Below are positions 12,991 through 33,376 of a DNA stretch of 64,000 nucleotides, piece by piece. Within the stretch, counting starts at the first letter, position 1, and every line of letters starts with the position of its first letter. A model generated the notes under the pieces. It worked only from the letters and a program-made list of their open reading frames with translations. It made no database searches and had not been told where the DNA came from. Both the position numbers and the translations under genes were made by a program. Source of the DNA: a phage; assembly GCA_024673055.1 (NCBI GenBank), contig GCA_024673055.1_4537.1; one strand, written 5' to 3'.

Positions 12991-13011
12991 ATTCAAAATG
13001 AAGGAGAAAAT

Positions 13012-13422: not shown

Positions 13423-13430
13423 GAGGGACA

Positions 13431-13673: not shown

Positions 13674-13689
13674 TAATAGGGAGGAGAAG

Positions 13690-15933: not shown

Positions 15934-15944
15934 TAGGAGAACAG

Positions 15945-16601
15945 ATGAAGAAGGGTAAACGTAAAGTTACCGTTCTCACAGAGAGGGGAGAAATCCCCTT
16001 GATTGTGGATGTTGAACGTAGATTGTGGGAAGGTGGTGTTATCAATGGGAAAAGGGTTAATACATTCATAGACCCTTCCTATGCAGCTTGGAAAGGCATG
16101 TTTAATCGTGCATATCGTATGGAAAACATTAGACCAGGTTATAAAGATGTTACTGTGTGTGATGCTTGGTTCACCTTTTCAAACTTTGATAACTGGTATC
16201 AAGAACACAATGTGGAAGGCTTTGTTTTAGATAAAGATCTTGTTCTTGAAGGAAATACTGTTTATTGTCCTGAATATTGTAGGTTTGTTCCTCCTTATAT
16301 AAATACACTCTTAAATTATGCTAAGAGGTATGAAAGAAAATACTTACTAGGAGCACATGTTAGGAAAGATGGTAAGATTTATGCCAAAGCTTCTGGGAGT
16401 AAAGGAAAGCATTTAGGCTACTTCGCTACAGAGGAAGAGGCACACTTCGCTTGGCTAAAAGATAAAGCTAAGTCAATCAGGGAAACAGCGGATCGTTACA
16501 AAGAGGAAGAACATTTTTATCCAGAGGTGTACAACACTCTTGTAAACAAGGCGGATTTCTATTGGCACCTGGCGGAAACAAAAACAGTATTTCGAGGCTA
16601 A
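15945..16601 (+). CDS. HNH/AP2-type homing endonuclease inserted between nrdA and nrdB
   Basis: Position identical to T4 mobE; AP2-like GYFATEEEAHFAW segment; LDKDL...GN...PEYCRFV HNH-like core. Confidence 0.5.
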   Translation: MKKGKRKVTVLTERGEIPLIVDVERRLWEGGVINGKRVNTFIDPSYAAWKGMFNRAYRMENIRPGYKDVTVCDAWFTFSNFDNWYQEHNVEGFVLDKDLVLEGNTVYCPEYCRFVPPYINTLLNYAKRYERKYLLGAHVRKDGKIYAKASGSKGKHLGYFATEEEAHFAWLKDKAKSIRETADRYKEEEHFYPEVYNTLVNKADFYWHLAETKTVFRG

Positions 16602-16605
16602 ATAT

Positions 16606-16629
16606 AAAGGGGCTTCGGCCCCCTTTTAT
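16606..16629 (+). terminator. intrinsic terminator (UUCG tetraloop)
   Basis: GGGGC-TTCG-GCCCC followed by TTTTATT. Confidence 0.65.
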
Positions 16630-16644
16630 TGAGGAGAATTTTAA

Positions 16645-17730
16645 ATGGCAGCAATTAATTTACACAATGAAGTTTACAAAACAGGAAAATATCCAGTATT
16701 TTTGGGGGAGCAATTAGGGATCTTTGATTCTGTTAACGTAACTTATCCAGAAATGCACAAACTCTACAAACTTCAAAAAGCACAAGATTGGGATGAAAAC
16801 GAAGTTAATCTGGATCAGACACGTAAAGATTTCGTAGCTTGTTCTAAAAACAACTATGATGTTATGATTAAAAACTTATCGTTCCAATGGGAAAATGATT
16901 CTCTTGCAAAATCAATCATCACTTTGTTCTCTCCATTCTTGAGTAACAATGAAGCCTGTGCTATGATGATGAAGCAGAGTGAAATGGAAGTTCTCCATGC
17001 GTTAACGTATTCTGAAATAATCCGTCAATGTACTCCAGATCCAATTGAAGTCATCAATCAGATTATGATTAATGATAAAATTTTCAATCGTATGGGTATC
17101 ATTGCTGATATCATGGGTCAGTTGGAAGAAGCTGGTCATAAGTATGCTCTAGGATTGATTGAAGCTAACGATGAACTTCGATTACTGATTCTTAAAGGGA
17201 TGGTAGCCCTGATTGGATTAGAAGGTATTCAGTTTATATCTTCCTTCTCTGCTACTTTTGCTATGGCAGAACAACAACTGTTTGTTGGGGCTTGTAAACT
17301 GATCCAGAAAATTATGCTAGATGAAATCTTGCATGTTAAGATGGATTATGCTGTAATTGATGCATTGATGCATGACCCAATTTGGCGTAAAATTTACGAA
17401 GATAATATTGAAGAGTTGACTTTGATCCTCGACACTGTTGTTGAACAAGAGGAACAGTGGTGTGACTACCTGTTTAGTGAAGGTCGTTTTATTGTAGGTC
17501 TTAACGCCGAATTGTCTAAACAGTGGGTTTATTTCAATGCTGCTCCTATTTATCGTCGATTGAAAATGAAAGCCAAGTTTAAAGCACCTAAACATAGTCC
17601 TTTAGCTTGGATGGAAAAATGGTTGAATCCTGATTTGATTCAGTCAGCAGCCCAAGAGATTCAGTTAACTAATTACAAATTGAATTCAGCTAACAAAGAT
17701 CTCTCTGATGATGAGGAGCTTGACTTCTAA
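16645..17730 (+). CDS. nrdB: ribonucleoside-diphosphate reductase small subunit
   Basis: 361 aa; acidic C-terminal tail (LSDDEELDF); immediately downstream of nrdA/homing endonuclease. Confidence 0.85.
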   Translation: MAAINLHNEVYKTGKYPVFLGEQLGIFDSVNVTYPEMHKLYKLQKAQDWDENEVNLDQTRKDFVACSKNNYDVMIKNLSFQWENDSLAKSIITLFSPFLSNNEACAMMMKQSEMEVLHALTYSEIIRQCTPDPIEVINQIMINDKIFNRMGIIADIMGQLEEAGHKYALGLIEANDELRLLILKGMVALIGLEGIQFISSFSATFAMAEQQLFVGACKLIQKIMLDEILHVKMDYAVIDALMHDPIWRKIYEDNIEELTLILDTVVEQEEQWCDYLFSEGRFIVGLNAELSKQWVYFNAAPIYRRLKMKAKFKAPKHSPLAWMEKWLNPDLIQSAAQEIQLTNYKLNSANKDLSDDEELDF

Positions 17731-17939
17731 TGATTTTGAGATGTGTTGGTATAATCGACACATTCAAAGACGTTTTTGACAAAGAGGCTTCTTATGAAGC
17801 CTCCGAAATGAAGAATGGTTTTTGTGATGTATTCGGTAAACGCCTGAAGAAAAACGGCGATCCTTGGCTAGGAGTTATGTCTTGTGGTCATATTATTGTA
17901 AATGGTGTTGCCAAGTTTGAAATAATTAAGGAGGAATAA
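17730..17939 (+). CDS. hypothetical protein
   Basis: 69-aa ORF coupled to nrdB stop. Confidence 0.4.
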   Translation: MILRCVGIIDTFKDVFDKEASYEASEMKNGFCDVFGKRLKKNGDPWLGVMSCGHIIVNGVAKFEIIKEE

Positions 17940-18091
17940 TGGCTGAAAAACTTATTTTTTGTCCTGTGTGTGGTGGGACTGGACAGATGGAAGTGGAAAT
18001 TATGGTAACATTTCCTTGCCTGAATTGTCATGGTGAAGGACGAGTAGTAGTCTTTGAAAAAGAAGGGTTGGAGGTAGAAGATGGAGAGTGA
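17939..18091 (+). CDS. small zinc-ribbon protein (50 aa)
   Basis: AAGGAGGA SD; CPVCGG...CLNCHG; below track cutoff. Confidence 0.35.
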   Translation: MAEKLIFCPVCGGTGQMEVEIMVTFPCLNCHGEGRVVVFEKEGLEVEDGE

Positions 18092-18245
18092 AAAAGAGTA
18101 TGTCCGAATTCCACGAGAATTAACAGATCACATTGCAGAAGCAATAGCTTTCGAAGCTAGATGTTGTGGAGGCATTGCTTACGATATTTATGAAGCAATT
18201 ATTAAAGCTGCTCAAGAAGAGGAGGAGATGAAAAATGGGTATTGA
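18081..18245 (+). CDS. small hypothetical protein (54 aa)
   Basis: GGAGG SD then ATG 18081; fills otherwise empty coding gap. Confidence 0.3.
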   Translation: MESEKEYVRIPRELTDHIAEAIAFEARCCGGIAYDIYEAIIKAAQEEEEMKNGY

Positions 18246-18561
18246 TATCGAATGGCGTATGTTACAGGGTGCACCTTTTAATAAGTGGGAAGAGGTTGTA
18301 GGAGAAGATCCTAGAATTGAAGAAGAATTTGATGGAGATTTTAACTGGTTCTTACAAGAAGGTCTTGACTTAAGTCGCATCTCTCCTTTCTACGATGCTG
18401 ATGAGTCTTATTGCATATATGGTATTTATTTAGAAGGCGGAGAAGGAAGCGTAGCTGTAGATCTTGAGCAAGTAAATGAGAATGCAAAAGAAGCCTATGC
18501 AGAGCTACTTGAAAAATATAACATTAAAACGGAAACTATTATTTCTCAACATGTCTGGTAA
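18235..18561 (+). CDS. hypothetical acidic protein
   Basis: 108-aa ORF, GAGGAGGAG SD. Confidence 0.5.
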   Translation: MGIDIEWRMLQGAPFNKWEEVVGEDPRIEEEFDGDFNWFLQEGLDLSRISPFYDADESYCIYGIYLEGGEGSVAVDLEQVNENAKEAYAELLEKYNIKTETIISQHVW

Positions 18562-18570
18562 GGAGAGAAA

Positions 18571-19137
18571 ATGAAAGTAGAAAAAACAAAAATTGAAGGT
18601 GCGGTAATTATCAAACCAGACGTTTATAAAGATGATCGTGGTTTCTTTTTAGAAACATACAATGAACAAAAATACGAAGATATCATTGGTAAACAAACTT
18701 TCGTTCAAGATAATATGTCTAAATCAAACTTCGGTGTTTTGCGAGGAATGCACTTTCAAACAAATAACCCGCAAGGTAAGCTTGTTCGTTGTGTAAGTGG
18801 AGAAGTATTGGATTTCGCTGTAGATTTACGTAAAGATAGTCCAACTTACGGTGCTTGGGACGGTGTTGTTCTTCGTGCACGACACCATACGCAGTTTTGG
18901 CTTCCCCCTGGTTTGGCACATGGTTTTATAGTTTTGAGTATGGACGCTATCTTTGAATACAAATGCACAACTCCATACGACCCTTCTAGCGAACAAAGTT
19001 TACGTTGGGATGATCCTGACATAGGGATCGATTGGGGCTTCGATATGATTTTTGACGAAGGTTTTAAACCTATCTTATCAACAAAAGATGCAATGGCTAA
19101 ATCTTTTCAACAGTTGCGTAGTGAGGGTGTATGCTAA
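18571..19137 (+). CDS. rmlC: dTDP-4-dehydrorhamnose 3,5-epimerase
   Basis: Cupin-fold RmlC signature DDRGFFLET and GMHFQ; 188 aa. Confidence 0.8.
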   Translation: MKVEKTKIEGAVIIKPDVYKDDRGFFLETYNEQKYEDIIGKQTFVQDNMSKSNFGVLRGMHFQTNNPQGKLVRCVSGEVLDFAVDLRKDSPTYGAWDGVVLRARHHTQFWLPPGLAHGFIVLSMDAIFEYKCTTPYDPSSEQSLRWDDPDIGIDWGFDMIFDEGFKPILSTKDAMAKSFQQLRSEGVC

Positions 19138-19973
19138 CATATCTGGTATTGGGTGGTAATGGACAACTGGGACAAGCTTTACGTAAAGTGGTTCCTTCTA
19201 ATGTATCTTTAATTTATCCTAAAGAACGTGTAGATATTACAAATTTTGAAGCTGTGCGAAACGCTATTGTTGAAGATTATGTAGACGGTGTTATTAACTG
19301 CGCTGCTTATACGGCTGTAGATAAAGCAGAACATGATTTTGCTACTGCTTTGGCTGTTAATGCGTATGGACCTGCAAATATTGCGGCAGTGTGCAGCAAA
19401 CTTAAAATTGATTTTGTGCATATTTCTACAGACTATATTTTTAATTACTCTCACCCTATTTTTGAAGATACTACACCTAACCCAATAAACAATTATGGGT
19501 ATACGAAAGAACTTGGTGAAAAAATGGTGCGAGGAGTTAACCCAAATGCATATATTATTCGAACAGCCTCGGTATATAGCGAATTTGGAAATAACTTTCT
19601 AAAAACGATGTTGTCTCGCTATAATGATGGACAACGTGATTTTATTATTGTTGCTGATCAGTTCTCTTGTCCAACATATGCTCCAGATTTAGCAGAAGCT
19701 ATTTTTGAAGTATTAAAGACAGGTTGGTCAAGGTCTGTTAAGACTTACCATTTTGCAGGAAGCCATTTTATTTCTTGGGCGGAGTTTGCGGAAAAGATCT
19801 TGACACAGATGCCAGAACCTGTTAAGATATCGGCGGTATCAGCTTCAACCTATAATGCTCCAGCAGCACGTCCGGTGAAGTCACAACTAGTAACCAGTCA
19901 CTACCTTACAAAATCAGATTTAAATAAAGGTATTGAACAGTCTTTAGCAGTATTACTTAATAAGGAGAGGTAA
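19131..19973 (+). CDS. rmlD: dTDP-4-dehydrorhamnose reductase
   Basis: N-terminal GGNGQLG Rossmann motif; YTAVDKAE and STDYIF motifs characteristic of RmlD. Confidence 0.75.
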   Translation: MLTYLVLGGNGQLGQALRKVVPSNVSLIYPKERVDITNFEAVRNAIVEDYVDGVINCAAYTAVDKAEHDFATALAVNAYGPANIAAVCSKLKIDFVHISTDYIFNYSHPIFEDTTPNPINNYGYTKELGEKMVRGVNPNAYIIRTASVYSEFGNNFLKTMLSRYNDGQRDFIIVADQFSCPTYAPDLAEAIFEVLKTGWSRSVKTYHFAGSHFISWAEFAEKILTQMPEPVKISAVSASTYNAPAARPVKSQLVTSHYLTKSDLNKGIEQSLAVLLNKER

Positions 19974-20233
19974 TGGAATTTGTAATTTTTGGTAAACCTA
20001 ACTGTCAATTTTGCGAAATGTCAAAACAACTATTAACCATGCGCAATAAACAGTTTGAATATTTAAGTCTTGATCAAGACTATGATTTAGAATCAATGAC
20101 TAAAACAGTTGTTGATCTTACCGGAGTTCCTCCACGCACATTTCCACAAATTCTATCTGAAGTGAACGGGGAGGTAACATACGTAGGCGGTTTTACCGAA
20201 CTGCGTGATCTCATGGCTCAAATTGCGGAGTAA
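19973..20233 (+). CDS. nrdC: glutaredoxin-like protein (T4 NrdC-type)
   Basis: 86 aa; CQFC redox motif near N-terminus; size and layout as T4 NrdC. Confidence 0.7.
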   Translation: MEFVIFGKPNCQFCEMSKQLLTMRNKQFEYLSLDQDYDLESMTKTVVDLTGVPPRTFPQILSEVNGEVTYVGGFTELRDLMAQIAE

Positions 20234-20238
20234 CAATT

Positions 20239-20388
20239 ATGAAAAGTAAACAGAAACGTAAGATCTTTTCTCGTGCTTTGGCAAATGAGCTGAAGTCCAA
20301 CATAAAGAAAACGAAACCAAAACGTGAGACTTCTCCAGAACATCTGTTGTTTAACGAGTTGGATCACGGAGTAGGAGACGATGAATAG
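20239..20388 (+). CDS. small basic hypothetical protein (49 aa)
   Basis: ATG 20239 after GGAG; fills gap before lysozyme. Confidence 0.3.
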   Translation: MKSKQKRKIFSRALANELKSNIKKTKPKRETSPEHLLFNELDHGVGDDE

Positions 20389-20395
20389 GAAGTAA

Positions 20396-20896
20396 ATGGC
20401 TAAAGTAGTAGATGAGTTTGATATGCTACGAGTCGATGAAGGACTGAAGCTTACTGTTTACCAAGATCATCTTGGTTATTGGACAGTTGGCATAGGACAC
20501 CTTCTGACTAAAATAAAAGATAAAGCAAAGGCTATTCAAATCTTAGATAATCTTCTTGGTCGTAAGACTAATGGAGTTATCACAGAAAAAGAAGCCCGTC
20601 AAATCTTTGCTGACGATGTTGCAAAAGTGAAGAGAGACATAAAAAACAGTACTATCTTATCACCAATCTATGATAAGGTTAGTGATACTCGTAAATTGGG
20701 AATAATCAACATGGTTTTCCAGTTGGGGTTAAAAGGTGCTGAAGGGTTTCAAAATAGCTTGACTTTAATCAGCAATGCATATTATACTCAAGCAGGTAAA
20801 AACATGCGTAAAAGCCGATGGTATAGCCAGACGCCAAACCGTGCTGAACGAGTAATTAAAGTTCTGACTTCTGGAACTTTAGATGCTTACAACTAA
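20396..20896 (+). CDS. e: T4-type lysozyme (endolysin)
   Basis: MLRVDEGLKLTVYQD...GYWTVGIGHLLTK...NMVFQLG...KSRWYSQTPNRAERVI closely parallels T4 lysozyme including the catalytic Glu/Asp/Thr region. Confidence 0.9.
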   Translation: MAKVVDEFDMLRVDEGLKLTVYQDHLGYWTVGIGHLLTKIKDKAKAIQILDNLLGRKTNGVITEKEARQIFADDVAKVKRDIKNSTILSPIYDKVSDTRKLGIINMVFQLGLKGAEGFQNSLTLISNAYYTQAGKNMRKSRWYSQTPNRAERVIKVLTSGTLDAYN

Positions 20897-20898
20897 TA

Positions 20899-20920
20899 AA
20901 GGGGCTTCGGCCCCTTCTAA
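20899..20920 (+). terminator. stem-loop (UUCG tetraloop), weak U-tract
   Basis: GGGGC-TTCG-GCCCC followed by TTCTAAAA. Confidence 0.45.
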
Positions 20921-20933
20921 AAGGAGTGCTACT

Positions 20934-21692
20934 ATGGGAAATAAAACCGCAGCTAAAACACAACGGCAGAAACTGGCTAATTCAGCAAAGATTGAAAGCC
21001 GTTATGCAGCAAAAGCGGTAGGTAATGACGATTACCGTTTAGATGAATTTATGCCTGAAGGGGACCAAAATAAGATTGTTCAAAGCATGATTTGGAATGA
21101 TCTGACTGTTGTAAATGCTCCGGCAGGGACTGGTAAAACCTCTGTTGCTTTATGGAAAGCTTTGCAGATGCTTCGTTCAGGAGACTTCCGTAAACTACTT
21201 TTTATCAAGAACCCTACTGAAGTCGGAGATGATCAGATTGGTTTCTTGTCGGGGGATAAAACAGATAAACTAGCAGCACACTATGAATCTACAAAACGTA
21301 TTTTCCAGCAATTCATGACAGCCAACAAATTGGAAAACGATATTGGATCAGGTAAGATCGAATTGAATATTCCTAACTATTTGTTAGGGGCTACCCTGGA
21401 TAATACAATCGTCATTATTGACGAAGCACAACTTATGTCAACAGAAACACTTAAACTTCTTATTGAACGTGCAGGTATTAATACGCATGTTATTGTATTA
21501 GGCGATGTTCGCCAGACATATGCAATTAAAAAACGTAGCAATGGTCTGCATCAAATTTTGGAACTTTTATATCCAGAAAATGAAGAAGGTGTTCGTGAGC
21601 CAATTGTAGATTTTATTGGATACGTTGAACTGACAACGGACGATAATAAACGTGGACGTTTGTCTAAACTGATTACTGAAGTGTTTATTTAA
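20934..21692 (+). CDS. phoH: PhoH-like ATPase
   Basis: Walker A APAGTGKTS, Walker B IIDEAQ; start ATG 20934 after AAGGAG (track start 20883 overlaps lysozyme and terminator). Confidence 0.75.
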   Translation: MGNKTAAKTQRQKLANSAKIESRYAAKAVGNDDYRLDEFMPEGDQNKIVQSMIWNDLTVVNAPAGTGKTSVALWKALQMLRSGDFRKLLFIKNPTEVGDDQIGFLSGDKTDKLAAHYESTKRIFQQFMTANKLENDIGSGKIELNIPNYLLGATLDNTIVIIDEAQLMSTETLKLLIERAGINTHVIVLGDVRQTYAIKKRSNGLHQILELLYPENEEGVREPIVDFIGYVELTTDDNKRGRLSKLITEVFI

Positions 21693-21727
21693 TAACATGG
21701 CAGGGAAGCCATTTATAAGGAGGATTG

Positions 21728-22228
21728 ATGGGTGTAGCAACAATAGCTATCGGAAGAAGCGGTATAGATGAGTGCTATCAAACGGGACTCGTAAAACCTA
21801 ACGAATTTCGTCAAATTTGTGTAAACCATATTGAAAAAGAGATTGCTCTTACTTTAGAGAATATGACCCTCCGAGATAAACTGGAAATGTTTAAATGTTG
21901 GTGTCTAGGAGAAGATTGGCTTTTAAACCATTTTCAAGAACTTTCTGATAGTAAAGAAAGCTTGTTTGATTGTATAATAGGAATAGCTGGCTCCGATCCT
22001 AGCCTTCTGCACATAACAGAAGAAGAGGCGAAGTTACTGTTCTTAAGTAATTTGTTTAATAAGAAAGCACTGCTTGTTCGTGATTGCAGTGATCTTCTTA
22101 ATAACCCGCTCGCAACGTCTGATCAAATTTTTGTTGACAAAGAGACACTACGTGCGATAGAATACATCTGCAAATATGTGAATGGCGGGAAAGCGGTTCT
22201 TAAAACATTAACAGAGGAGGAAGAATAG
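21728..22228 (+). CDS. hypothetical protein
   Basis: AAGGAGGA SD then ATG 21728. Confidence 0.5.
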   Translation: MGVATIAIGRSGIDECYQTGLVKPNEFRQICVNHIEKEIALTLENMTLRDKLEMFKCWCLGEDWLLNHFQELSDSKESLFDCIIGIAGSDPSLLHITEEEAKLLFLSNLFNKKALLVRDCSDLLNNPLATSDQIFVDKETLRAIEYICKYVNGGKAVLKTLTEEEE

Positions 22229-22920
22229 TGACGACAATTATTGCAACCAAAAATAAGATTTTGAGTGACGGTAAGGTAACTTTTGGTGGACGTGTAGATT
22301 CTATTAATTTCAAAAAGGTCCGAAAAATTGGAGATTACCTTGTAGGTGGTGCTGGTCGTCTGACCTCCGTGCTTTCTTTCTTTCAATGGTTTGAACAAAA
22401 TCTACAGTGCGAAGCAGCACGTGATGCTGTCCCTGGTTTGATGATTCACTCTGATCCAGATAAAGAAGATGAAGAGTTTATTGCACTTGTTGTTCATCCA
22501 GACGGACGTATTTTCCTGCACGAAGGTAACAACCCAACACGTGCATATCCGATTGATGAAGAATATTATGCAGTAGGGAGTGGGTCAGATTTTGCTTTAG
22601 CTGCTCTTGATGCAGGGGCAACACCAGAACAGGCTATGGAAGTAGCTAAAAAGCGAGATGCTTTTTCTGGTGGTGAAACATTTATTGAAGAACAAGACGA
22701 GATTATTGAATTAACAGATGATGATTTAGAAAACTTCTCCAAAGAAGAATTGATCAATCTTTTGAAATTCGGTAATCCCTACGGTGAAGAAGAACCTCGT
22801 AACGTGGCAGGTAACGAGGCGGATACTGAAGAAAAATCTGTTGCAGAAAACAACTTGACTTCTAAATCTGAAAATATTAATCTCGTAAATGTGGCGGATT
22901 TCGAAGGAACCGCTATTTAA
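22228..22920 (+). CDS. HslV/proteasome-beta-like Ntn peptidase with acidic C-terminal extension
   Basis: N-terminal M-TTIIATK (Thr1 nucleophile after Met removal), GGAGRL, YYAVGSGSDFALAALDAG matches HslV GSGG/active-site region. Confidence 0.55.
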   Translation: MTTIIATKNKILSDGKVTFGGRVDSINFKKVRKIGDYLVGGAGRLTSVLSFFQWFEQNLQCEAARDAVPGLMIHSDPDKEDEEFIALVVHPDGRIFLHEGNNPTRAYPIDEEYYAVGSGSDFALAALDAGATPEQAMEVAKKRDAFSGGETFIEEQDEIIELTDDDLENFSKEELINLLKFGNPYGEEEPRNVAGNEADTEEKSVAENNLTSKSENINLVNVADFEGTAI

Positions 22921-22925
22921 CAAAC

Positions 22926-22945
22926 TGCCCCTTCGGGGGCATTTC
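22926..22945 (+). terminator. intrinsic terminator
   Basis: GCCCC-TTCG-GGGGC followed by ATTTCTT. Confidence 0.5.
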
Positions 22946-22965
22946 TTAAACATAGGAGATTAATA

Positions 22966-23400
22966 ATGTTACAAGTTCCTGCTAAGTTTGTTGAAGGCGC
23001 TATCCACTCTTACCGTCAAACATGTAAGAGGGCAAGAAACTGTTTAGATGGTCTGGTGGCAAAAACCTATACTGTTGAAAAGAAGAAACGTTGGTTTGGC
23101 AAAGATGTTTATGAAGTTAATATTTTTGGTGAACATAAACTAAACCATGACACTCCTGAAAACATGTTAGAAATATTTCTAAGAGATGACAAAATATCTC
23201 CTATGGATTACCAACTTTTAAAATTTTATGATTCTTCTTTGGCTATTGATAAGTTTGTTGAAGATATTCTGTCTAGAAAAACAGATAAAAACACTTATCC
23301 TCTAGAAGCTGATCAAATAGGATTATTAAACGAGATTTCATCCTTTAAAGAGTTGGATAATATTACAAAAGAGGAGATTTTAGATGGCATTAGATTATGA
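22966..23400 (+). CDS. hypothetical protein
   Basis: 144-aa ORF, AGGAGA SD. Confidence 0.5.
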   Translation: MLQVPAKFVEGAIHSYRQTCKRARNCLDGLVAKTYTVEKKKRWFGKDVYEVNIFGEHKLNHDTPENMLEIFLRDDKISPMDYQLLKFYDSSLAIDKFVEDILSRKTDKNTYPLEADQIGLLNEISSFKELDNITKEEILDGIRL

Positions 23401-23893
23401 TCGCCCAACGAGCGATTATTATCCGACACCGCAAAAAGCAATCAATAGTTTGTTTAGTGTTATAGATTTCAAAAATCTAAAGGAAGAAGGTTGGGTTTTT
23501 GCAGAACCTTGCAGAGGTGAAGCTGAAGCGATTTATCGCCATTTTCCTGAAGGTTCAGAATATTGCGAACTTGAAGAAGGTAAAGATTATTTTAGTCATG
23601 AATGGGAAAATCGTCCCGACATTATAATCACAAATCCTCCATTTAAGTTAGCAATGGAGTTCTTGGAAAAGAGCTTAAAAGAGGCGGATGTTTGTATTTA
23701 TCTTCTTCGGTTGGGTTTCTTGGAGTCAAAGAAACGACGAGAGTTCCATCAAAAGAATCCACCAACAAACCTTATAGTCCTTTCAGAACGGCCTTCGTTT
23801 GTTGCAGGTGGAACAGATAAGACAGCATACGCTTGGTATGTATACGACCCAAAGAATCGTTTGGGCCTCTCTCAACCATTTTATTTTGTTTAA
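23384..23893 (+). CDS. small amino-methyltransferase-like protein (phage Dam-like, NPPF motif)
   Basis: IIITNPPF (motif IV of N6A/N4C MTases) and FAEPCRGEAEA (SAM-binding-like); 169 aa. Confidence 0.5.
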   Translation: MALDYDRPTSDYYPTPQKAINSLFSVIDFKNLKEEGWVFAEPCRGEAEAIYRHFPEGSEYCELEEGKDYFSHEWENRPDIIITNPPFKLAMEFLEKSLKEADVCIYLLRLGFLESKKRREFHQKNPPTNLIVLSERPSFVAGGTDKTAYAWYVYDPKNRLGLSQPFYFV

Positions 23894-23905
23894 GGAGTGT
23901 GAACT

Positions 23906-24142
23906 ATGGGTAAACTAATTATGACAGTGGCTATTGATTTTGATGAAGTAGATGAAAGCCTCAACCTTTCACTTTCTACTGACGTAGATGGCGAAATGGA
24001 TAATATTGAAGCAGCTACTGCTCTTTTCTTCAAAAAAGCCATTGAAGTTTATGCCGAACATGCTGCAAATCAGGCAGTAGATTACGGTGGTATCGTGCGA
24101 GCTTTAGTTCACTCTACCGAGGGCAATGACTGGGAAGATTAA
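23906..24142 (+). CDS. hypothetical protein
   Basis: 78-aa ORF. Confidence 0.4.
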   Translation: MGKLIMTVAIDFDEVDESLNLSLSTDVDGEMDNIEAATALFFKKAIEVYAEHAANQAVDYGGIVRALVHSTEGNDWED

Positions 24143-24345
24143 TGGCTTACAATTATTACTGCATTTATGCACATGAAAAGAAAAAAGGTGACACTGGGAC
24201 TAACGTTTATGCAGAGTCCGAATCTCATGCAAAAGAGATTGGTGCTATCCTTTTATCACGCTGGACTGGAAATAATTACAGTGCAGAAGATATGTTTGCA
24301 GAAGTGGATTCTAGTATCCAAGAAGACAACATAACAACTACGTGA
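24142..24345 (+). CDS. hypothetical protein
   Basis: 67-aa ORF coupled to upstream stop. Confidence 0.4.
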   Translation: MAYNYYCIYAHEKKKGDTGTNVYAESESHAKEIGAILLSRWTGNNYSAEDMFAEVDSSIQEDNITTT

Positions 24346-24390
24346 TATACTTATACTCCCTTTTCGGAGGGAGTATTTTAAGGAGGGATT

Positions 24391-24585
24391 ATGCAGAGCG
24401 GAGAAGAACTTTTAGAGAAACAATTCTCAACGCGTCAACAAGCTTTAAGTTATATGGTTTTTCTAAGCAATCTTGATGTGAATGAGATACTTTTACGGCG
24501 CGAAGGTAATTTCTGGAGCGTTAAATATCATGCAACAAGGTCTGTAATCTACCTGGAAGAGGCGGAATTCTCTTTGGTAGAATGA
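24391..24585 (+). CDS. hypothetical protein
   Basis: AAGGAGGGA SD; preceded by stem-loop CTCCC-TTTTCG-GAGGGAG. Confidence 0.4.
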   Translation: MQSGEELLEKQFSTRQQALSYMVFLSNLDVNEILLRREGNFWSVKYHATRSVIYLEEAEFSLVE

Positions 24586-24599
24586 TCCGAGGAGTAGTT

Positions 24600-25172
24600 A
24601 TGCGTTCAACTTTCACTGGCAAAATAAATGCTGGTTTGATTTTTACAGCAGTAAGCATTCTTAGCAAAAAGTTTAAAGTTGTTAACTTACCTGTGTGTGT
24701 CGATTTCGATCATGTTTTTGATCCTTCGAACCCCACTCGTTGCATAGTAAGGAGCAATGTTGAAAACCCAACAGAAAATCTTTTTTATGTAACAAAACCA
24801 TCTCAAAGCATACTTAACCAGGTTGAGGCGAAATTGATACCTAACGGTAAATATTACTCCTTTTTACCTTGTAAGTCGGTTGAAGTAGAGAATAGCAGTA
24901 CTTTCGCTAACAACTTGTCTGTATTCGTTTTCTTTGTTTCACAGGAAGACGAAACAGATGAAATGGTAGCAACAGTGAGATCACTTTATGACTCTTTAGG
25001 GGTTGTTTATAGTCAACAAGTGTGCGAAAATAATAAAGCCTGTGTAGATTTCATTATCAACGGTATTTGTGTTTGTAGAGTAGAATCTTTTTGGCTGCAC
25101 GATACATATGTGACTGTAGCAGAGGTTATATCTGAACCAAGATTTAGTCATGCGGTTTCGTTAATAATTTGA
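24600..25172 (+). CDS. hypothetical protein
   Basis: GAGGAG SD then ATG 24600 (track start 24582 lacks SD). Confidence 0.5.
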   Translation: MRSTFTGKINAGLIFTAVSILSKKFKVVNLPVCVDFDHVFDPSNPTRCIVRSNVENPTENLFYVTKPSQSILNQVEAKLIPNGKYYSFLPCKSVEVENSSTFANNLSVFVFFVSQEDETDEMVATVRSLYDSLGVVYSQQVCENNKACVDFIINGICVCRVESFWLHDTYVTVAEVISEPRFSHAVSLII

Positions 25173-25182
25173 GGAGGAAGGA

Positions 25183-25512
25183 ATGGAAATTACTACAGAA
25201 CAAGCCCTTATCGACGAGGGTCGTAAAATCTTAGAAAAGTATTTAGGGGAGATTCATAAAACCCCTGGCTATTTGGGTTGGAGAATTGTTGAAGCTGTAG
25301 ATTTCCTTCCTCGTAACAGTAAAAACGTCGAAATGCGATCTCTTTTCTTATTAGTAAAGGTGGATGGGGATACACCTTTTAAAGATGCCGCAGAACATAT
25401 TGAAAAAGTTGAAGAGAAAGCTTATGCAGAATTTGCCGATCTTGTTTTAGAACAAGAGATTGAAGGAAAGGTGAATATTTTTATTTTCTTAGATTTTGAG
25501 GAGGATAAGTGA
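25183..25512 (+). CDS. hypothetical protein
   Basis: 109-aa ORF, GAGGAGGAAGG SD. Confidence 0.5.
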   Translation: MEITTEQALIDEGRKILEKYLGEIHKTPGYLGWRIVEAVDFLPRNSKNVEMRSLFLLVKVDGDTPFKDAAEHIEKVEEKAYAEFADLVLEQEIEGKVNIFIFLDFEEDK

Positions 25513-26252
25513 TCATACACAGAGAAATTACTGTTGAAAGCGATCAAGATCTTTTTATAATTGGAGATCTACACGGTTGTTATAATTTGTATGAAAAAGG
25601 AAAGGCAAAGTTAGGTATCCGAGATACAGATGTGGTTGTATCTCTAGGAGATCTTACTGACCGTGGAAAGCAAAACTTTCGTTGTGTTTTAGAATTTACT
25701 CGTAAACACAATCGCTACGCTATTCGTGGAAATCATGAAGACATGATGATTAAAGGTATGCTGGAAGGAGATCGTAGCTACTACGAGTGTTGGTATCAAA
25801 ATGGAGGATATACGGTCTTTGAAGAATGTGGTGAAGAAGGAGCTACAGCCTTAGCAATGATGACAGAAGATTTACCTGTTGTTCTCATTGTTAACTACAG
25901 AGGCATGAAACTTGCGTTTATTCATGGTGGGTATCCATCTTCTTTGGAATATCTCCCTGTAACAGATATTCCAGAATACATTTCGAAGATGACAAAAACA
26001 CAGGAAAACCGTTTTGCTGAAGCACTTATGTGGGACAGAGATATGGTAGACTGTGCTAAAGAGGGAATGAAACTTCCTGTTGTGATGGGTGTGGATTATG
26101 TGTTTCATGGACACTCTTATGTAAAAACACCTATTATCAATGCGAATCGTGTTTATATGGATACTGGATCTGTGTTCAATAATAACTTAACATTTGCTTA
26201 TTTCGATATGGACGGTGGTCTTCAATTTTATTCAACTCTTGAGGAGGATTAA
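25509..26252 (+). CDS. Ser/Thr protein phosphatase (lambda PPase-like metallophosphatase)
   Basis: GDLHG, GDLTDRG, RGNHE motifs in canonical order; GTG start after GAGGAGGA. Confidence 0.75.
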   Translation: MIIHREITVESDQDLFIIGDLHGCYNLYEKGKAKLGIRDTDVVVSLGDLTDRGKQNFRCVLEFTRKHNRYAIRGNHEDMMIKGMLEGDRSYYECWYQNGGYTVFEECGEEGATALAMMTEDLPVVLIVNYRGMKLAFIHGGYPSSLEYLPVTDIPEYISKMTKTQENRFAEALMWDRDMVDCAKEGMKLPVVMGVDYVFHGHSYVKTPIINANRVYMDTGSVFNNNLTFAYFDMDGGLQFYSTLEED

Positions 26253-26560
26253 TGTATAAGATTACAATTATTCAAAGTGTAGGTAATATCCGTAAAGAAG
26301 TTATCTTAGAAACAGAAGATGTTAATCTTGTTCGTGAGATTGTTCTTAAGGAAGATAACCTGCAAGCTGTAGAATCAGATGCACCGAATCTTATGGTGGA
26401 TCAAGAATATTCTGAACTTCGTCGTATTTTTGAAGAGATTCAGAAGAAAGAAACACAACCGACCATAAAACCTTTTGGTCCTTATGATCCGAGCAATCCT
26501 AGCAGTCCTTGGATCATGAGAAATACGGAACCGTATACACCTTTTGAAATTACTTGTTGA
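26252..26560 (+). CDS. hypothetical protein
   Basis: 102-aa ORF. Confidence 0.45.
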   Translation: MYKITIIQSVGNIRKEVILETEDVNLVREIVLKEDNLQAVESDAPNLMVDQEYSELRRIFEEIQKKETQPTIKPFGPYDPSNPSSPWIMRNTEPYTPFEITC

Positions 26561-26567
26561 GGTGATT

Positions 26568-27149
26568 ATGGCAGAACTGTTCTATACGGGAGTTGGAAGT
26601 AGAGACATATCCGAAGAAGAGTGGGCTTTGATGGTAGGCATAGGGAAATGGCTTTCAAACCTTGGGTTTAAATTAAGGTCTGGGAAGGCAGAGGGTAGTG
26701 ATTCTGCTTTTGAAACAGGTGTCCAAGAGTCTGAAAATCCTACTAACAAGGAGATTTATGTTCCTTGGGAAAATTTCAAAGGTAATCAGATTCCAGGGGA
26801 TGTTATTGTTCTTGCAAAACCAGATACAATGAACTATGCTATCTCTGTGCAATGGATCAAAGATGTTCACCCAGCCTATGAAAAGCTTAAGCAGGGTGCT
26901 AGAAAATTGCACCAACGTAATGTGCATCAAGTGTTAGGTAGAGATTTGGAAAATCCTGCTCCATCATGTTTCTTGTTGGCTTGTGCTAATACTGATAAAC
27001 ATGGAGATGCAAAAGGTGGAACAGCTACGGCTTGGAAGATAGCTAAAGCCAATAATGTTCCTTGTTTAAACATTCGTGGGAAAACAAAACAAGAGATTTA
27101 CGATTTTCTACGACCTTTGGTAATGAGGGCAATAACAAGTGATTCCTAA
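26568..27149 (+). CDS. SLOG/DprA-like Rossmann-fold protein
   Basis: GVGSRD and RSGKAEGSDSAFETG resemble DprA/SLOG SGxAxGxD nucleotide-binding motif; weak. Confidence 0.35.
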   Translation: MAELFYTGVGSRDISEEEWALMVGIGKWLSNLGFKLRSGKAEGSDSAFETGVQESENPTNKEIYVPWENFKGNQIPGDVIVLAKPDTMNYAISVQWIKDVHPAYEKLKQGARKLHQRNVHQVLGRDLENPAPSCFLLACANTDKHGDAKGGTATAWKIAKANNVPCLNIRGKTKQEIYDFLRPLVMRAITSDS

Positions 27150-27651
27150 ACGTAAACGTGGTGAACAAAGAACAAACTTGGCAGAAATCTTAGATTACAA
27201 CATGGTTAATGATGTGACAAAAGAAATTCTGCCTGTTGTAGAAGATATTCTTCAAAGAGGGTTACGATTCTGCTCGGATCGGGTGCATTTCATGTGGACA
27301 CATAAAAGTGACTCCGCTTTGAATTTCTATCCTTTGGATTATACTCTGAACAATACAGAGATGAAAGATATCAACAAATACTTAATGGGATATAAAGATA
27401 TAACCGAAACTGTTCTTGGAGAATTGGCAGAAATCTTGGCTAACGATATTCTTAGAAATATTAATAAGGCTCTTGACAGAAGCCCAGCAGGAGTAGTAGT
27501 ATCTTTTGCTGTGCCAGATATGGTTAAATATGAGTCTACAATACCTAATAAAGCTTATGCCTTTCTTCGGAGAGACGTTCGTGGAAATGTGTTGGAGATG
27601 GAGTCAAACTACAAGATTGAGGAGGTTTTATGGCAGAGTTCGGATCAGTAA
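27139..27651 (+). CDS. hypothetical protein
   Basis: 170-aa ORF; start uncertain (GTG 27139 or ATG 27199). Confidence 0.4.
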   Translation: MIPKRKRGEQRTNLAEILDYNMVNDVTKEILPVVEDILQRGLRFCSDRVHFMWTHKSDSALNFYPLDYTLNNTEMKDINKYLMGYKDITETVLGELAEILANDILRNINKALDRSPAGVVVSFAVPDMVKYESTIPNKAYAFLRRDVRGNVLEMESNYKIEEVLWQSSDQ

Positions 27652-27920
27652 CAAGTTTTGAAAGTAACTTCGTTACCGCTTGGGAAGCTTGGGATGAAAT
27701 GGGTGTTGGGGAACTTTATTTTTACAATGTAACACTACGTCCAGAGTATGCTTACCTGGTACCAGAAGGAACAGTTCAAATTGGCATGTATCTGTCTTCT
27801 CAAGATGGTGTTGTTCAATTTGAGTTTTATTCAAACACAACGGACAACGAATTTACATATCGTGCATTTCATGTCAACATGTCTTTAGGAGAGGAGAAAT
27901 TTTATGACGACCAAGTTTAA
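27630..27920 (+). CDS. hypothetical protein
   Basis: 96-aa ORF, GAGGAGG SD. Confidence 0.45.
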   Translation: MAEFGSVTSFESNFVTAWEAWDEMGVGELYFYNVTLRPEYAYLVPEGTVQIGMYLSSQDGVVQFEFYSNTTDNEFTYRAFHVNMSLGEEKFYDDQV

Positions 27921-28101
27921 AACAGTAGAAGAAGCCGTAAAAGCAGCTTATGAGGCTTTAGCGGAAGCAGAGCAGTTAGCAGATGAGACTGGTAAAGGTT
28001 TCCGTTTCTCCCCTGAATATGGGATGGGTGGCTATTATGATCCAGAAGATGAAAATGAGAATACTGGAACAAATTGGCATCCATCTTCTTTAAGTTGTTA
28101 A
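27904..28101 (+). CDS. hypothetical protein
   Basis: 65-aa ORF, GGAGAGGAG SD. Confidence 0.4.
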   Translation: MTTKFKTVEEAVKAAYEALAEAEQLADETGKGFRFSPEYGMGGYYDPEDENENTGTNWHPSSLSC

Positions 28102-28112
28102 TAGGAGGTAAA

Positions 28113-28388
28113 GTGGGAATCGAAGATATCAAAGGTTATAAGGCGCATACTGACGATAAGATTGGCAAGGTTAACGCTATTAAAGATGCAGAAGAGCGTT
28201 TAGGTTTAATCTTCAAAGCTTTAGAGGAAGAGTATTGTGAAGCATATCATGGGTCTTTTGACGGCACAGAAAAAGAATTAGATCTTGCATACGAACGTAT
28301 TGATCAAATCCGTTGTGCTATTAAACATTTAAAAGAAGCTAGTATGTGGGCTTGTCGTTCAGTTTTCCAACCAGAGGAGAAATACTAA
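28113..28388 (+). CDS. hypothetical protein
   Basis: AGGAGG then GTG 28113. Confidence 0.4.
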   Translation: MGIEDIKGYKAHTDDKIGKVNAIKDAEERLGLIFKALEEEYCEAYHGSFDGTEKELDLAYERIDQIRCAIKHLKEASMWACRSVFQPEEKY

Positions 28389-28606
28389 TGAGTGATCGTA
28401 ATGTTGAAGAATTAACTGAAAAAGCCCAAGCTATTATGGCTTTAGTGGACGAACTTACAAAAGAAGCTGAAGATGCTGGTTTTGGTCTTAGTTTAGAAAA
28501 TGACGCAATCTGTTTTGAAGATTGGCAATCCTCTTCTTGTTATGGTGAAGGTGATGATGGTTTCGTCGTTAATTCTCAAGGCGTTTGGCACAGTAGTAGC
28601 TGTTAA
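28388..28606 (+). CDS. hypothetical protein
   Basis: GAGGAGAAATACTA then ATG 28388. Confidence 0.4.
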   Translation: MSDRNVEELTEKAQAIMALVDELTKEAEDAGFGLSLENDAICFEDWQSSSCYGEGDDGFVVNSQGVWHSSSC

Positions 28607-28615
28607 GGAGAGATT

Positions 28616-28888
28616 GTGGAGTCTGAAGGCGAACTGCTGATAAAAAAGAAAGTTAAAGAGATGGAACAAGCACAAAGAAAGTTTCGTAAGGAGATTGAAG
28701 AACTTTGTGAACAGTTTCAGGAACAAGCTTGGATAGGTGACTACGGTAACGGAGAAACTTATTACCCTACAGGAACGCCAGCCGCAGATCACTATATTGA
28801 TTTCATTTGTGAAGATTATGGTGTAGAGTTGGATGAAAATGGTTTAACCACAAGAGGTGTTTGGATCTCTTCTTCCTTAATGTGTTAG
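28616..28888 (+). CDS. hypothetical protein
   Basis: GGAGAGATT then GTG 28616. Confidence 0.4.
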   Translation: MESEGELLIKKKVKEMEQAQRKFRKEIEELCEQFQEQAWIGDYGNGETYYPTGTPAADHYIDFICEDYGVELDENGLTTRGVWISSSLMC

Positions 28889-28897
28889 TAAATAATA

Positions 28898-28919
28898 ACC
28901 CGCTTCGGCGGGTTTTTTA
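28898..28919 (+). terminator. intrinsic terminator (UUCG tetraloop)
   Basis: ACCCGC-TTCG-GCGGGT followed by TTTTTT. Confidence 0.65.
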
Positions 28920-28922
28920 TTG

Positions 28923-28951
28923 ACAGGAATCTGGAAGCTTGATAAACTTAA
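28923..28951 (+). promoter_or_regulatory. sigma70-like promoter (TTGACA-17-TAAACT)
   Basis: -35 TTGACA 28923-28928 immediately after terminator; -10 TAAACT. Confidence 0.45.
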
Positions 28952-28978
28952 CCTATCAACCAATAGAGGAGAAATATT

Positions 28979-29920
28979 ATGGTGTTAATTGGTAGCCGTG
29001 CATTGCAAATTCATGCTATGGACATGGGAAAAGACTTGTATCGCCCTTGTGTAGATTTAGATTACCTGTGTACAGAACAAGAGTGGGAAGAATTATTAAA
29101 AATGTTCTCTCAAGAGGAGTTTGTTGAACTTGTAGAACGTAAAGGAAACAAAGGCCATGTCAAAATGATAGCTGGTGCACATTTGGAATACGATATTGCT
29201 TCTCAAGGAGATAGCACAGAAGCTTTGATTAGTTATTGTGAAGATTCTGATGATGTTCGTCGAACTTACGCTGGACATGTTGTTGCTCCTTTAGATGTGC
29301 TCTACCTTCTTAAAATGAGTCATCGTTTTAAAAAGGATAGTCCTCACTTCTTTAAAACTATGAAAGATATTCATTTCATGCGGTCACTGGGCGCAAAGAT
29401 CCCAGAAAATCTTAAGAGTATTTATGAGTTGCGTGAGAAAGAAACATACACTTACTCTCATCCGAACTTAAACGTAAAAAGTAAAGACTTCTTTAAAGGT
29501 GATGAGGTTCCGTATGTTTATGATCATGATTCTATCCATGAAGCAATCTCGGTAATGGATGCTCCAGCATATAAATCTTATATGAAAGATGGAAGTGAAG
29601 TTATGACCAGCAAAGAAAAGTTTTTTGCTCAACCAAAACATGTGCGCCTGTTAGGTGTTTATGAAGAAGCGTGTGTTTTGGCTTTGGAACGTTCACAAAT
29701 CCCTTTCGGTGAAGAGATCGGAGGTCCAACCCCTAAGCAAAGTTTTATAATGGCTTTATCTAAAGTCTGCACATCCATCACTAGTGGTTGGTTTAGGGAA
29801 TATGCTTGGGAAAACTTTTATGTTGTTACTAAGCTATATGAAAACATGGGCGAAAACGATTATGTTGAACGTTTTAAAGCTAATCAACATGTAGTTAAGC
29901 CTTTTGAAGGAGGTTATTAA
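28979..29920 (+). CDS. hypothetical protein (possible minimal nucleotidyltransferase fold)
   Basis: 313-aa ORF; N-terminal LIGSRAL...DLD loosely resembles pol-beta-type NTase GS...DxD; weak. Confidence 0.45.
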   Translation: MVLIGSRALQIHAMDMGKDLYRPCVDLDYLCTEQEWEELLKMFSQEEFVELVERKGNKGHVKMIAGAHLEYDIASQGDSTEALISYCEDSDDVRRTYAGHVVAPLDVLYLLKMSHRFKKDSPHFFKTMKDIHFMRSLGAKIPENLKSIYELREKETYTYSHPNLNVKSKDFFKGDEVPYVYDHDSIHEAISVMDAPAYKSYMKDGSEVMTSKEKFFAQPKHVRLLGVYEEACVLALERSQIPFGEEIGGPTPKQSFIMALSKVCTSITSGWFREYAWENFYVVTKLYENMGENDYVERFKANQHVVKPFEGGY

Positions 29921-29921
29921 T

Positions 29922-30317
29922 ATGTGTGGATATCTTTCAGAAAGTTATTTCAAAGTGACCCATGAGGATTTAGAAAAAGCACGATTGAAACTGACAGCTA
30001 TTATTGAATACTCTAATACTGTTGATCACAGATTAAAGACTACTAAAGTATCTGTTCCTTGTTGGTTAGGTTTACGGCATAAAACAATGTCTCAGCATGA
30101 CCATGTTGTTCGAGAGATGCATGGTTGGTGTTGGTTTCACGATGTGGCTCTGCATTTTGGTTATATTACAGAAGAAGAGCATAGATTCTGTGAACTAACA
30201 TATCGTATTCCAACCCTTCACGATTTAGATTTGTGGAAGAAAGCAAACGAGATTTTTCTTACAGAAAGTGATTGGCGTAAAGTTATGGCTTGTCTTGAAT
30301 GGAGGGGTAATGAGTAA
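29922..30317 (+). CDS. hypothetical protein
   Basis: AAGGAGG then ATG 29922. Confidence 0.45.
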   Translation: MCGYLSESYFKVTHEDLEKARLKLTAIIEYSNTVDHRLKTTKVSVPCWLGLRHKTMSQHDHVVREMHGWCWFHDVALHFGYITEEEHRFCELTYRIPTLHDLDLWKKANEIFLTESDWRKVMACLEWRGNE

Positions 30318-30993
30318 AACAGTTTTGTCTATGTTTGACGGATCTGGGATCATGGTGTTACGTTATGCCGAAGCAGGTCACAAGTGTTTTTGTGTAAACG
30401 CTGATGAAGGGGATCACGGTAAATACGAGGTTAGGATGGAGCACCCAAACATAACCTATGTGAATGCCTGGATAGATTCTACATTCAACCCTGAAGATCA
30501 TGGGATACCTAAACCCGATATTATTTTTGGATTTCCACCCTGCACTATGTTAGCAGGTAGTGGTAGCAAACACGAACGTAGCACAGAGGAATTAGATGAA
30601 GCTTTAGCTAATATTCGTGTAGTGGAAGCTTTGGGTAACAAATATAATGTTCCTTGGATGATTGAGAACCCAGTAGGTAAACTTTCAACCTTATGGCGTA
30701 AACCCGATTTTTACTTTGATCCTTATGAGTATGGTGGGTATTTGTTTGAAGAGGAAGGAAGCTTTCATCCTAAAATGCCTACCCGTGATGGGTATACAAA
30801 GAAAACTTGTATTTGGCACGGCAATGGTTTTGTTCAACCAGTGAAGAAACCAGTAGATCATATAGGCTGCTTCTGGGGTTGGAAAAGCTTAGGTGGAGCT
30901 AGTGCAAAAACAAAACAACTTAGATCACTAACCGCACGTGGTTTTGCTCGTGCAGTGTTTTTGTCTAACAATCTTCTAGATAAGGAGAAATAA
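30310..30993 (+). CDS. cytosine-C5 methyltransferase-like protein (minimal, PCT variant)
   Basis: Start ATG 30310 after GGAGG; FDGSG (motif I-like), FGFPPCTMLAG (motif IV PC(Q)-like), IENPVGKL (motif VI ENV-like); no obvious target-recognition domain. Confidence 0.45.
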   Translation: MSKTVLSMFDGSGIMVLRYAEAGHKCFCVNADEGDHGKYEVRMEHPNITYVNAWIDSTFNPEDHGIPKPDIIFGFPPCTMLAGSGSKHERSTEELDEALANIRVVEALGNKYNVPWMIENPVGKLSTLWRKPDFYFDPYEYGGYLFEEEGSFHPKMPTRDGYTKKTCIWHGNGFVQPVKKPVDHIGCFWGWKSLGGASAKTKQLRSLTARGFARAVFLSNNLLDKEK

Positions 30994-31646
30994 TGTCAAA
31001 TTCAAAACCAGTGGTTGCTTATCAAGTAGATCGTAATGATGGTGAAGGAAGTGTTGTTATTTTCAGTACACACGGTCTTGAGGCTCGTCGAAAAGGTGCA
31101 TATCGTTTAGAATGTGAGTTTGAAGACTGCACAAGCCACCGTGTCAAACAATTCGATCAATATGCTGATAAAGGCTTCGTCCCTATCAAAGCGTTACTGG
31201 AAGATGGTTGGTGGGTATATTCTGCTTTTGATTACTCAAAACTGGAGGAGTCAGCTTCGTGCGCCTCCGAGATCGAATATGATGATTACTATGACACTCT
31301 ATACCTTCCAGAATGGCTTGTCTTTTCTCCTGATGAGAGAAGTGTCTGGAAAACGTGGGAAGAAATGGAGAGACATGCGTATAGCATCAATGAAGCTTTA
31401 GATCGTAAAGCTTGGTTTATTGAGGCAGTAAAGGCGGCATACCCCCAATTCTCATTCTGTGATTTCACTGGTGGCCCAGGATACATTACACATACAGCCT
31501 CTTTTGAGTTTCCTGGTTCACGTTATAAGGGTAATGTTTATTGGGACTGGGATGAAAATAAACAACCTTCGGCTCAAGACTTCCGTTGCTATGTTTGTCA
31601 AGGTGATCAAGAAGCCCTTGACAAATACCTTGAAAGTCTGGTATAG
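30993..31646 (+). CDS. hypothetical protein
   Basis: 217-aa ORF, AAGGAGAAATA SD. Confidence 0.5.
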   Translation: MSNSKPVVAYQVDRNDGEGSVVIFSTHGLEARRKGAYRLECEFEDCTSHRVKQFDQYADKGFVPIKALLEDGWWVYSAFDYSKLEESASCASEIEYDDYYDTLYLPEWLVFSPDERSVWKTWEEMERHAYSINEALDRKAWFIEAVKAAYPQFSFCDFTGGPGYITHTASFEFPGSRYKGNVYWDWDENKQPSAQDFRCYVCQGDQEALDKYLESLV

Positions 31647-31654
31647 TGCCGATA

Positions 31655-31690
31655 TCTGAACAAAGCCTCCTGTTTCAGGGGGCTTTTCTT
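31655..31690 (+). terminator. probable intrinsic terminator
   Basis: GCCTCC-tgtttca-GGGGGC stem-loop followed by TTTTCTTTT. Confidence 0.45.
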
Positions 31691-31704
31691 TTATAGGAGG
31701 GAAT

Positions 31705-32990: not shown

Positions 32991-32998
32991 ACCACTCA

Positions 32999-33024
32999 AG
33001 GGGGCTTCGGCCCCTTTCTTATTA
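32999..33024 (+). terminator. intrinsic terminator (UUCG tetraloop)
   Basis: GGGGC-TTCG-GCCCC followed by TTTCTTATT. Confidence 0.6.
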
Positions 33025-33034
33025 GGAGAATAAA

Positions 33035-33307: not shown

Positions 33308-33310
33308 AAC

Positions 33311-33337
33311 AAAGGCACCCAAGTGGGTGCCTTTTCT
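33311..33337. terminator. bidirectional terminator at convergence point
   Basis: GGCACCC-AAGT-GGGTGCC hairpin flanked by T-tracts on both strands between converging gene blocks. Confidence 0.6.
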
Positions 33338-33376
33338 ATTTTAGAGCGTCTCTGTTCGATTTAGGTGGGTTCTAGC

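Follow-up and report, generated by a model that had tools for sequence, protein, structure and literature searches.

What does the small gene at positions 23384..23893 (+ strand, stop codon included) of this phage DNA encode, and could its product shield the phage from restriction? The window, a stretch of 64,000 nucleotides that was analysed as a whole, comes from a Phapecoctavirus (Stephanstirmvirinae), a phAPEC8-like Escherichia coli myophage; many such phages are 99.5–99.7% identical to it, with Mt1B1_P17 the closest match (99.7%). A preliminary description had proposed that the gene encodes a small orphan amino-methyltransferase with an NPPF motif and an EPxxGxG segment, of the compact Dam type found in phages, and that it might serve as an anti-restriction DNA modification. 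Our analysis indicates that the gene probably encodes an orphan N6-adenine DNA methyltransferase that depends on S-adenosylmethionine (SAM) and consists of the catalytic Rossmann core only. We infer its activity, adenine as the target and the biological role, and, from homology and gene context, DNA as the substrate. The gene is not novel: RefSeq (YP_009987130.1) and UniRef list an identical protein under the name 'DNA methyltransferase', and its sequence is found on 424 public contigs; the orthologs in phi92, rV5 and K139 carry similar names, and many GenBank records still describe the product as hypothetical.

The reading frame itself is well supported. The 169-residue protein, read from an ATG start, appears in the list of open reading frames (ORFs) and in public records, and over residues 4–163 it matches the 'DNA methyltransferase' family phrog_799 (E = 2.8e-59, 202.5 bits). 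Comparison with the ortholog of phage muut (76% nucleotide and 85% amino acid identity) gave a ratio of non-synonymous to synonymous substitution rates (dN/dS) of 0.048, and the gene is therefore under strong purifying selection. In an alignment of 53 family sequences, reaching down to 41% identity, the invariant positions are T15, E41-P42-C43, T83-N84-P85-P86, F93, L107, R118, R136-P137-x-F139 and W151, and E62, G66, D68-Y69 and D79 are nearly so. The catalytic motif IV, N84-P-P-F87 (23633..23644, +), follows a strand at residues 80–83 (IIIT) in a structural model of the protein. A scan of all six frames of the window found two matches to [DN]PP[FYW], and only the one in the context IIITNPPF lies in a long ORF and is preceded by a hydrophobic strand, as is typical for signatures of N6-methyltransferases. 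Because T83, N84, P85 and P86 are invariant in the 53-sequence alignment, NPPF is not a chance match, and the first element of the preliminary description, a 169-residue ORF with this motif, stands.

The remaining motifs of an amino-methyltransferase can be placed around this catalytic site from conservation in the same alignment. An N-terminal motif X-like element, Y13-P14-T15-P16 (23420..23431, +; family consensus D-x-Y-P-T-P), aligns with D-L-W-A-T-P of the family of Dam enzymes typified by Haemophilus phage HP1. The putative SAM-binding loop of motif I, E41-P42-C43-R44-G45-E46-A47 (23504..23524, +), comes after a strand at residues 39–41 of the model. The motif II/III region spans E62-L-E-E-G-K-D-Y-F70 (23567..23593, +), and by analogy with class-I methyltransferases E62, G66, D68 and Y69 would be expected to contact the ribose and adenine of SAM. 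A motif VIII-like element, R136-P-S-F139 (23789..23800, +), has its counterpart in an R-I-P-F that is invariant among the HP1-type Dam enzymes, and F139 likely stacks on the flipped base as an aromatic residue. The order is thus that of the unpermuted gamma class (N12): YPTP (X), EPCRG (I), E62/D68-Y69 (II/III), NPPF (IV) and RPSF (VIII). Motifs I and IV are 38 residues apart, and the chain ends 82 residues past NPPF. In some relatives a cysteine-rich, zinc-ribbon-like insert follows RPSF, or a zinc ribbon is found at the C terminus.

An AlphaFold2 model of the protein (predicted local distance difference test (pLDDT) 90.2, predicted template modelling score (pTM) 0.87) comprises only the strands and helices of a Rossmann-type core. 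On the strength of this predicted structure we regard the fold class, that of a SAM-binding Rossmann-core amino-methyltransferase, as established; with the intact (D/N)PP(F/Y) motif it bears out the enzyme class that the preliminary description had named, and at 169 residues of core the protein is indeed compact. The model shows no target-recognition domain at the C terminus, and no neighbouring ORF looks like a specificity subunit. Among DNA N6-adenine enzymes, fold comparison with the model scored MmeI at 13.0, M.TaqI at 12.9, M.BseCI at 12.2, type I HsdM at 12.0 and CamA at 11.8, with Erm and KsgA slightly lower. The window protein shares with these five gamma-class enzymes the motif order X-I-IV-VIII and NPP(F/Y), and the consensus of its family, EPCRGxG, fits their motif I of the (D/E)PxCG type; unlike it, they have a C-terminal recognition domain or an HsdS subunit. 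Consistent with this class, the deposited annotation of the homolog in Campylobacter phage CP220 includes the PRINTS signature of N12-class N6-methyltransferases and PS00092. N4-cytosine specificity, which we also considered, is unlikely, as the motif has the form NPP(F/Y) and not SPP(Y/F).

These elements suggest how such an enzyme would work. SAM would bind at the EPCRG loop and at E62 and D68-Y69; the target adenine would be flipped into the NPPF pocket, where F87 and F139 would stack against it, and the methyl group would be passed to N6. Sequence recognition would fall to loops of the core, namely the loop at residues 137–150 and the C-terminal hairpin. Its predicted substrate is phage DNA during replication, methylated at some short motif; this would mask at most a narrow set of restriction sites, affording no general anti-restriction.

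The family is widespread, and its genomic context is in keeping with a DNA substrate. With tblastn, the gene was found in 544 phage records, including phages of Escherichia, Vibrio, Klebsiella, Campylobacter, Aeromonas, Salmonella, Cronobacter and Staphylococcus, and in bacterial genomes the family is spread over many phyla. Relatives lie in the replication–recombination modules of phages and prophages, near genes for DnaB, DNA polymerase A, RecT, DnaC-like loaders and other DNA methyltransferases. The bacterial loci that we inspected are prophage-like replication or recombination modules in which the family member lies next to a DnaB_2/DnaC-like loader, RecT, a phage antirepressor or a helix-turn-helix replication protein. 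On one metagenomic phage contig (ERZ761591 NODE_11; L066:1251-6538), a cluster of methyltransferase genes between the DnaB helicase gene and thyX comprises a family member, a PF05869 Dam, a strong PF02086 match and a faint PF02086-like gene, a co-occurrence that suggests that these families differ in specificity. A separate locus, in Bacteroides clarus YIT 12056 (L129:3947-7506), has a family member followed directly by a protein with a Cap4 double-stranded-DNA endonuclease domain and an ATPase resembling SMC and AAA_23 proteins; this neighbourhood may be of a defence type instead of a prophage replication module.

Several observations weigh against the preferred reading, and we gather them here. 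First, the family consensus of motif I is EPCRGxGAIY, as seen in homologs outside the clade of Phapecoctavirus and Justusliebigvirus, whereas in the window protein the second glycine is replaced by alanine and one residue is inserted, giving GEAEA in place of GxGA. The EPxxGxG segment of the preliminary description was thus the right element, though not present letter for letter: the sequence is EPCRGEA, and the second glycine is gone. Second, the window protein stays below the cut-off of every Pfam and NCBIfam model. NCBIfam returns nothing, the best Pfam match is PF13651 EcoRI_methylase (E = 0.02; 14.7 bits, where 26.4 would be needed), followed by MTS at E = 0.29, and none of the curated gamma-class models PF02384 N6_Mtase, PF07669 Eco57I and PF13651 EcoRI_methylase scores above cut-off; PADLOC gives only a weak match to a generic type II methyltransferase (E = 3.6e-4). 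Third, neither the protein nor the 53-sequence profile has a significant match among the sequences of the Protein Data Bank (PDB), and literature searches, which covered few subscription journals, found no biochemical or methylome test of any family member. Fourth, RNA enzymes are among the closest folds of the model, and the protein is acidic (isoelectric point 5.2, net charge −6) and has no DNA-binding domain. Finally, the BASEL study found Vequintavirinae and their relatives 'exceptionally susceptible' to restriction–modification (RM) systems and without 'any effective protection'; the six systems tested were EcoKI, EcoCFT_I, EcoRI, EcoRV, EcoP1_I and EcoCFT_II (PMC8594841). The group tested there consisted of Vequintavirus and phi92-like (Justusliebigvirus) phages and included no Phapecoctavirus isolate (PMC8594841). 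Orthologs of the window protein are encoded by phages of the BASEL collection, at 84.6% identity in PaulScherrer and 47.6% in RudolfGeigy. Because these ortholog-bearing relatives are highly sensitive to six RM systems, any methylation must miss the corresponding sites, which argues strongly against non-specific adenine methylation.

This sensitivity of Justusliebigvirus and Vequintavirus relatives speaks against a general effect of the anti-restriction modification suggested in the preliminary description. A general anti-restriction role is unsupported, and a narrow protective role at another motif is possible. We also considered palindrome statistics as a guide to the target motif. GTAC, GGCC, CCGG and CTAG are depleted across 1..64000 (observed/expected 0.36, 0.35, 0.40 and 0.51, respectively) and GATC (1.07, 332 sites), TGCA (1.09) and GCGC (1.05) are not; the depleted palindromes may reflect the avoidance of restriction sites, and such statistics cannot identify the target. 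Phages of Phapecoctavirus, Justusliebigvirus and Vequintavirus are popular therapy candidates, and those relatives that were tested are unusually restriction-sensitive; knowledge of the motif that this enzyme protects, if any, would help to predict host range.

Which known enzymes does the protein most resemble, and does that resemblance reveal its target? The HP1-type Dam enzymes are likewise of about 170 residues, consist of the bare core and lack a recognition domain, and they share with the window protein the order (W/Y)xTP, D/E-x-C, NPP(Y/F), hydrophobic strand and R-x-x-F as well as a location in the replication region of phages and prophages. HP1 and VT-2 Dam have been cited as cloned phage Dam enzymes (PMC7556043). 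The Pfam model of this group, PF05869 'Dam', scored 250.8 bits with HP1 orf13 (our positive control), 20.5 bits (sub-threshold) with the CP220 homolog and did not match the window protein even at E <= 10 (gathering score 28.1 bits). When the 53-sequence alignment was compared with one of 17 relatives of HP1 orf13, hhalign gave a probability of 94.2% (E = 1.2e-7) over 120 collinear columns at about 14% identity, pairing DxYPTP with DLWATP, NPPFSLAxEF with NPPYSNPLPF and the YLLRL strand with VVMLLN; a single-sequence comparison added RPSF with RIPF. The PF05869 enzymes differ from the window protein in having DxCA in place of the EPCRGxG glycine loop, and in NPPYSNP and many invariant tryptophans. 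By these comparisons the window family is a distant sister group to the mini-Dam enzymes of the HP1 type and does not belong among them, so the earlier label of a compact phage Dam-type enzyme holds as remote collinear homology to the PF05869 profile and fails as a family assignment, with no match to PF02086 or PF05869 and no ground for GATC specificity.

The protein might nevertheless be an isospecific Dam enzyme that methylates GATC as the compact Dam enzymes of HP1, VT-2 and T1 do, topping up or replacing host Dam on phage DNA. The remote homology to PF05869, the similar size, the shared lack of a recognition domain and the unavoided GATC sites of the window are all compatible with this. 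Against it, the GATC specificity of HP1 and VT-2 cannot be carried over to the window protein, which is only about 14% identical to their family and fails the PF05869 model entirely. GATC sites are methylated by the E. coli host in any case, and the presence of a family member beside PF05869 Dam and PF02086 genes on the metagenomic contig described above argues for a non-redundant specificity. We consider a GATC enzyme unlikely. The nearest published result that we found is a ClaI digest of Pectobacterium phage CB7, taken by its authors as support for Dam methylation of the phage DNA (PMC7344957); the host's own Dam could explain that result. The Dam enzymes of E. coli and T4 (alpha class, PF02086) resemble the window protein in being orphan enzymes of the N6-adenine type that phages also carry. 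Unlike it, they have the order motif I, recognition domain, motif IV and a DPPY motif; PF02086 gave no match for the window protein, and the window family is unrelated to them in architecture.

A similarly improbable alternative is that the substrate is not DNA, and that the protein methylates ribosomal RNA (rRNA) or transfer RNA (tRNA), forming N6-methyladenine (m6A) or N2-methylguanine (m2G), or a protein amide, in the manner of METTL5/PH1948, RsmC/RsmD or PrmC, and thereby alters the host translation apparatus during infection. All of these enzymes use the same NPPF/NPPY pocket. The best fold matches of the model are of the METTL5/PH1948 type, and one structural neighbour in BFVD is labelled 'COG2263 predicted RNA methylase'. 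METTL5/PH1948, which methylate 18S rRNA to m6A, are similar in size (about 200 residues), contain NPPF and have YPT near the N terminus; the acidic character of the window protein and its lack of a recognition domain would also fit an enzyme of this kind. With human METTL5 (the sequence used being identical to PDB 9ohl_C and 6h2u_A), hhalign gave a probability of 77% over just 35 columns at motif IV (NPPF-helix-strand), compared with 120 columns for the DNA Dam family. METTL5 also needs its partner TRMT112, as a PDB entry title states. The gene contexts differ as well: the window family lies in phage replication modules, among genes for DNA replication and other DNA methyltransferases, with no translation genes.

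An HMMER scan with the 53-sequence profile found 13,647 clusters of 50% identity with E <= 1e-3, of which 7,140 reach E <= 1e-10, and almost all of these relatives are 160–220 residues long. It is conceivable, at rather long odds, that this very large family of about 13,600 clusters, having no recognition domain, recognizes its substrate in a way unlike classical DNA methyltransferases, for example as obligate dimers that read palindromes, on single-stranded or replication-fork DNA, or on host rRNA or tRNA. We searched the relatives for fusion partners that would reveal a substrate, and the only long ones appear to be fusions of one methyltransferase to another. In these rare proteins (P0212, of 560 residues, and P0245, of 448), the profile matches twice or is paired with a second region of methyltransferase type (weak DUF6094 match). 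They thus resemble tandem fusions of two methyltransferase cores, an arrangement which suggests that the small proteins could function as dimers. The family is abundant, yet neither Pfam nor NCBIfam has a curated model for it and no structure has been solved, and the methylome of one member would annotate thousands of phage genes.

Two further readings fare worse. The missing recognition domain, in a chain that ends so soon after NPPF, would be accounted for by an adenine DNA methyltransferase of no or very low specificity, similar to M.EcoGII or Hia5. HP1-type Dam enzymes, however, are reported, in work by Piekarowicz and Bujnicki from 1999, to be site-specific even though they have no recognition domain. 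As far as is known, m6A within its site blocks each of the six RM systems used in BASEL. The phi92-like BASEL phages, including PaulScherrer with its 85% ortholog, were strongly restricted as a group by these six systems (PMC8594841). We therefore hold a non-specific enzyme to be highly unlikely. Equally implausible is a catalytically dead or repurposed protein, for example one that binds SAM or has a regulatory function: the altered glycine loop, with its lost glycine and gained insertion, would fit it, but all other invariant residues are present under the low dN/dS, imperfect glycine loops are common among active gamma-class enzymes (for example, M.TaqI with EPACAHG), and Phapecoctavirus and Justusliebigvirus have both kept the variant loop.

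The surroundings of the gene support its orphan status. In the RefSeq record the co-directional gene order is PhoH-like, hypothetical, HslV-like peptidase, hypothetical, methyltransferase and then small hypothetical genes, and the position after a PhoH and a protease gene is kept in rV5, in which a ClpP gene precedes the ortholog. No neighbour carries a nuclease or specificity-subunit signature, the flanking ORFs being PHROGs of unknown function without a Pfam domain, and no restriction endonuclease gene is adjacent at the window locus or in rV5, muut or Kappa. The methyltransferase is thus an orphan, in agreement with the preliminary description. A Shine-Dalgarno-like GAGGAG (23371..23376, +) lies 7 nucleotides 5' of its ATG. 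Its start overlaps by 17 nucleotides the upstream ORF at 22966..23400 (+), which encodes 144 residues, matches phrog_15078 (unknown function), has no Pfam match and is probably co-transcribed with the methyltransferase gene. Directly 3' of the HslV-like peptidase gene and before this ORF lies a hairpin rich in GC, TGCCCCTTCGGGGGCA, with a run of T after it (22926..22941, +; found by consensus scan only); it is likely an intrinsic terminator that divides transcription units, and the unit containing the methyltransferase gene may begin after it.

We considered the product of the 144-residue upstream ORF as a specificity partner and rejected it: it has no domains, is absent from the rV5 locus and shows no similarity to the methyltransferase (BLASTP E = 0.73). 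The 90%-identity database cluster that contains the window protein also holds proteins of 142–144 residues that are products of this upstream neighbour gene (for example, muut gp183). Because the two proteins share no similarity, their joint cluster is an artefact of database clustering.

Two other ORFs of the window deserve mention. A second compact methyltransferase-like gene at 30310..30993 (+) encodes 227 residues with the C5-cytosine-type motifs FDGSG, FPPC and ENP; its product matches phrog_757 'DNA methyltransferase' (E = 1.8e-84) and Pfam PF00145 only at E = 0.18, and seems not long enough for a recognition domain of the usual kind. The ORF at 24582..25172 (+), of 196 residues, carries the name 'histidyl tRNA synthetase' from phrog_4806 and RefSeq, a label that looks doubtful because the product is far too short for a complete histidyl tRNA synthetase and has no Pfam match.
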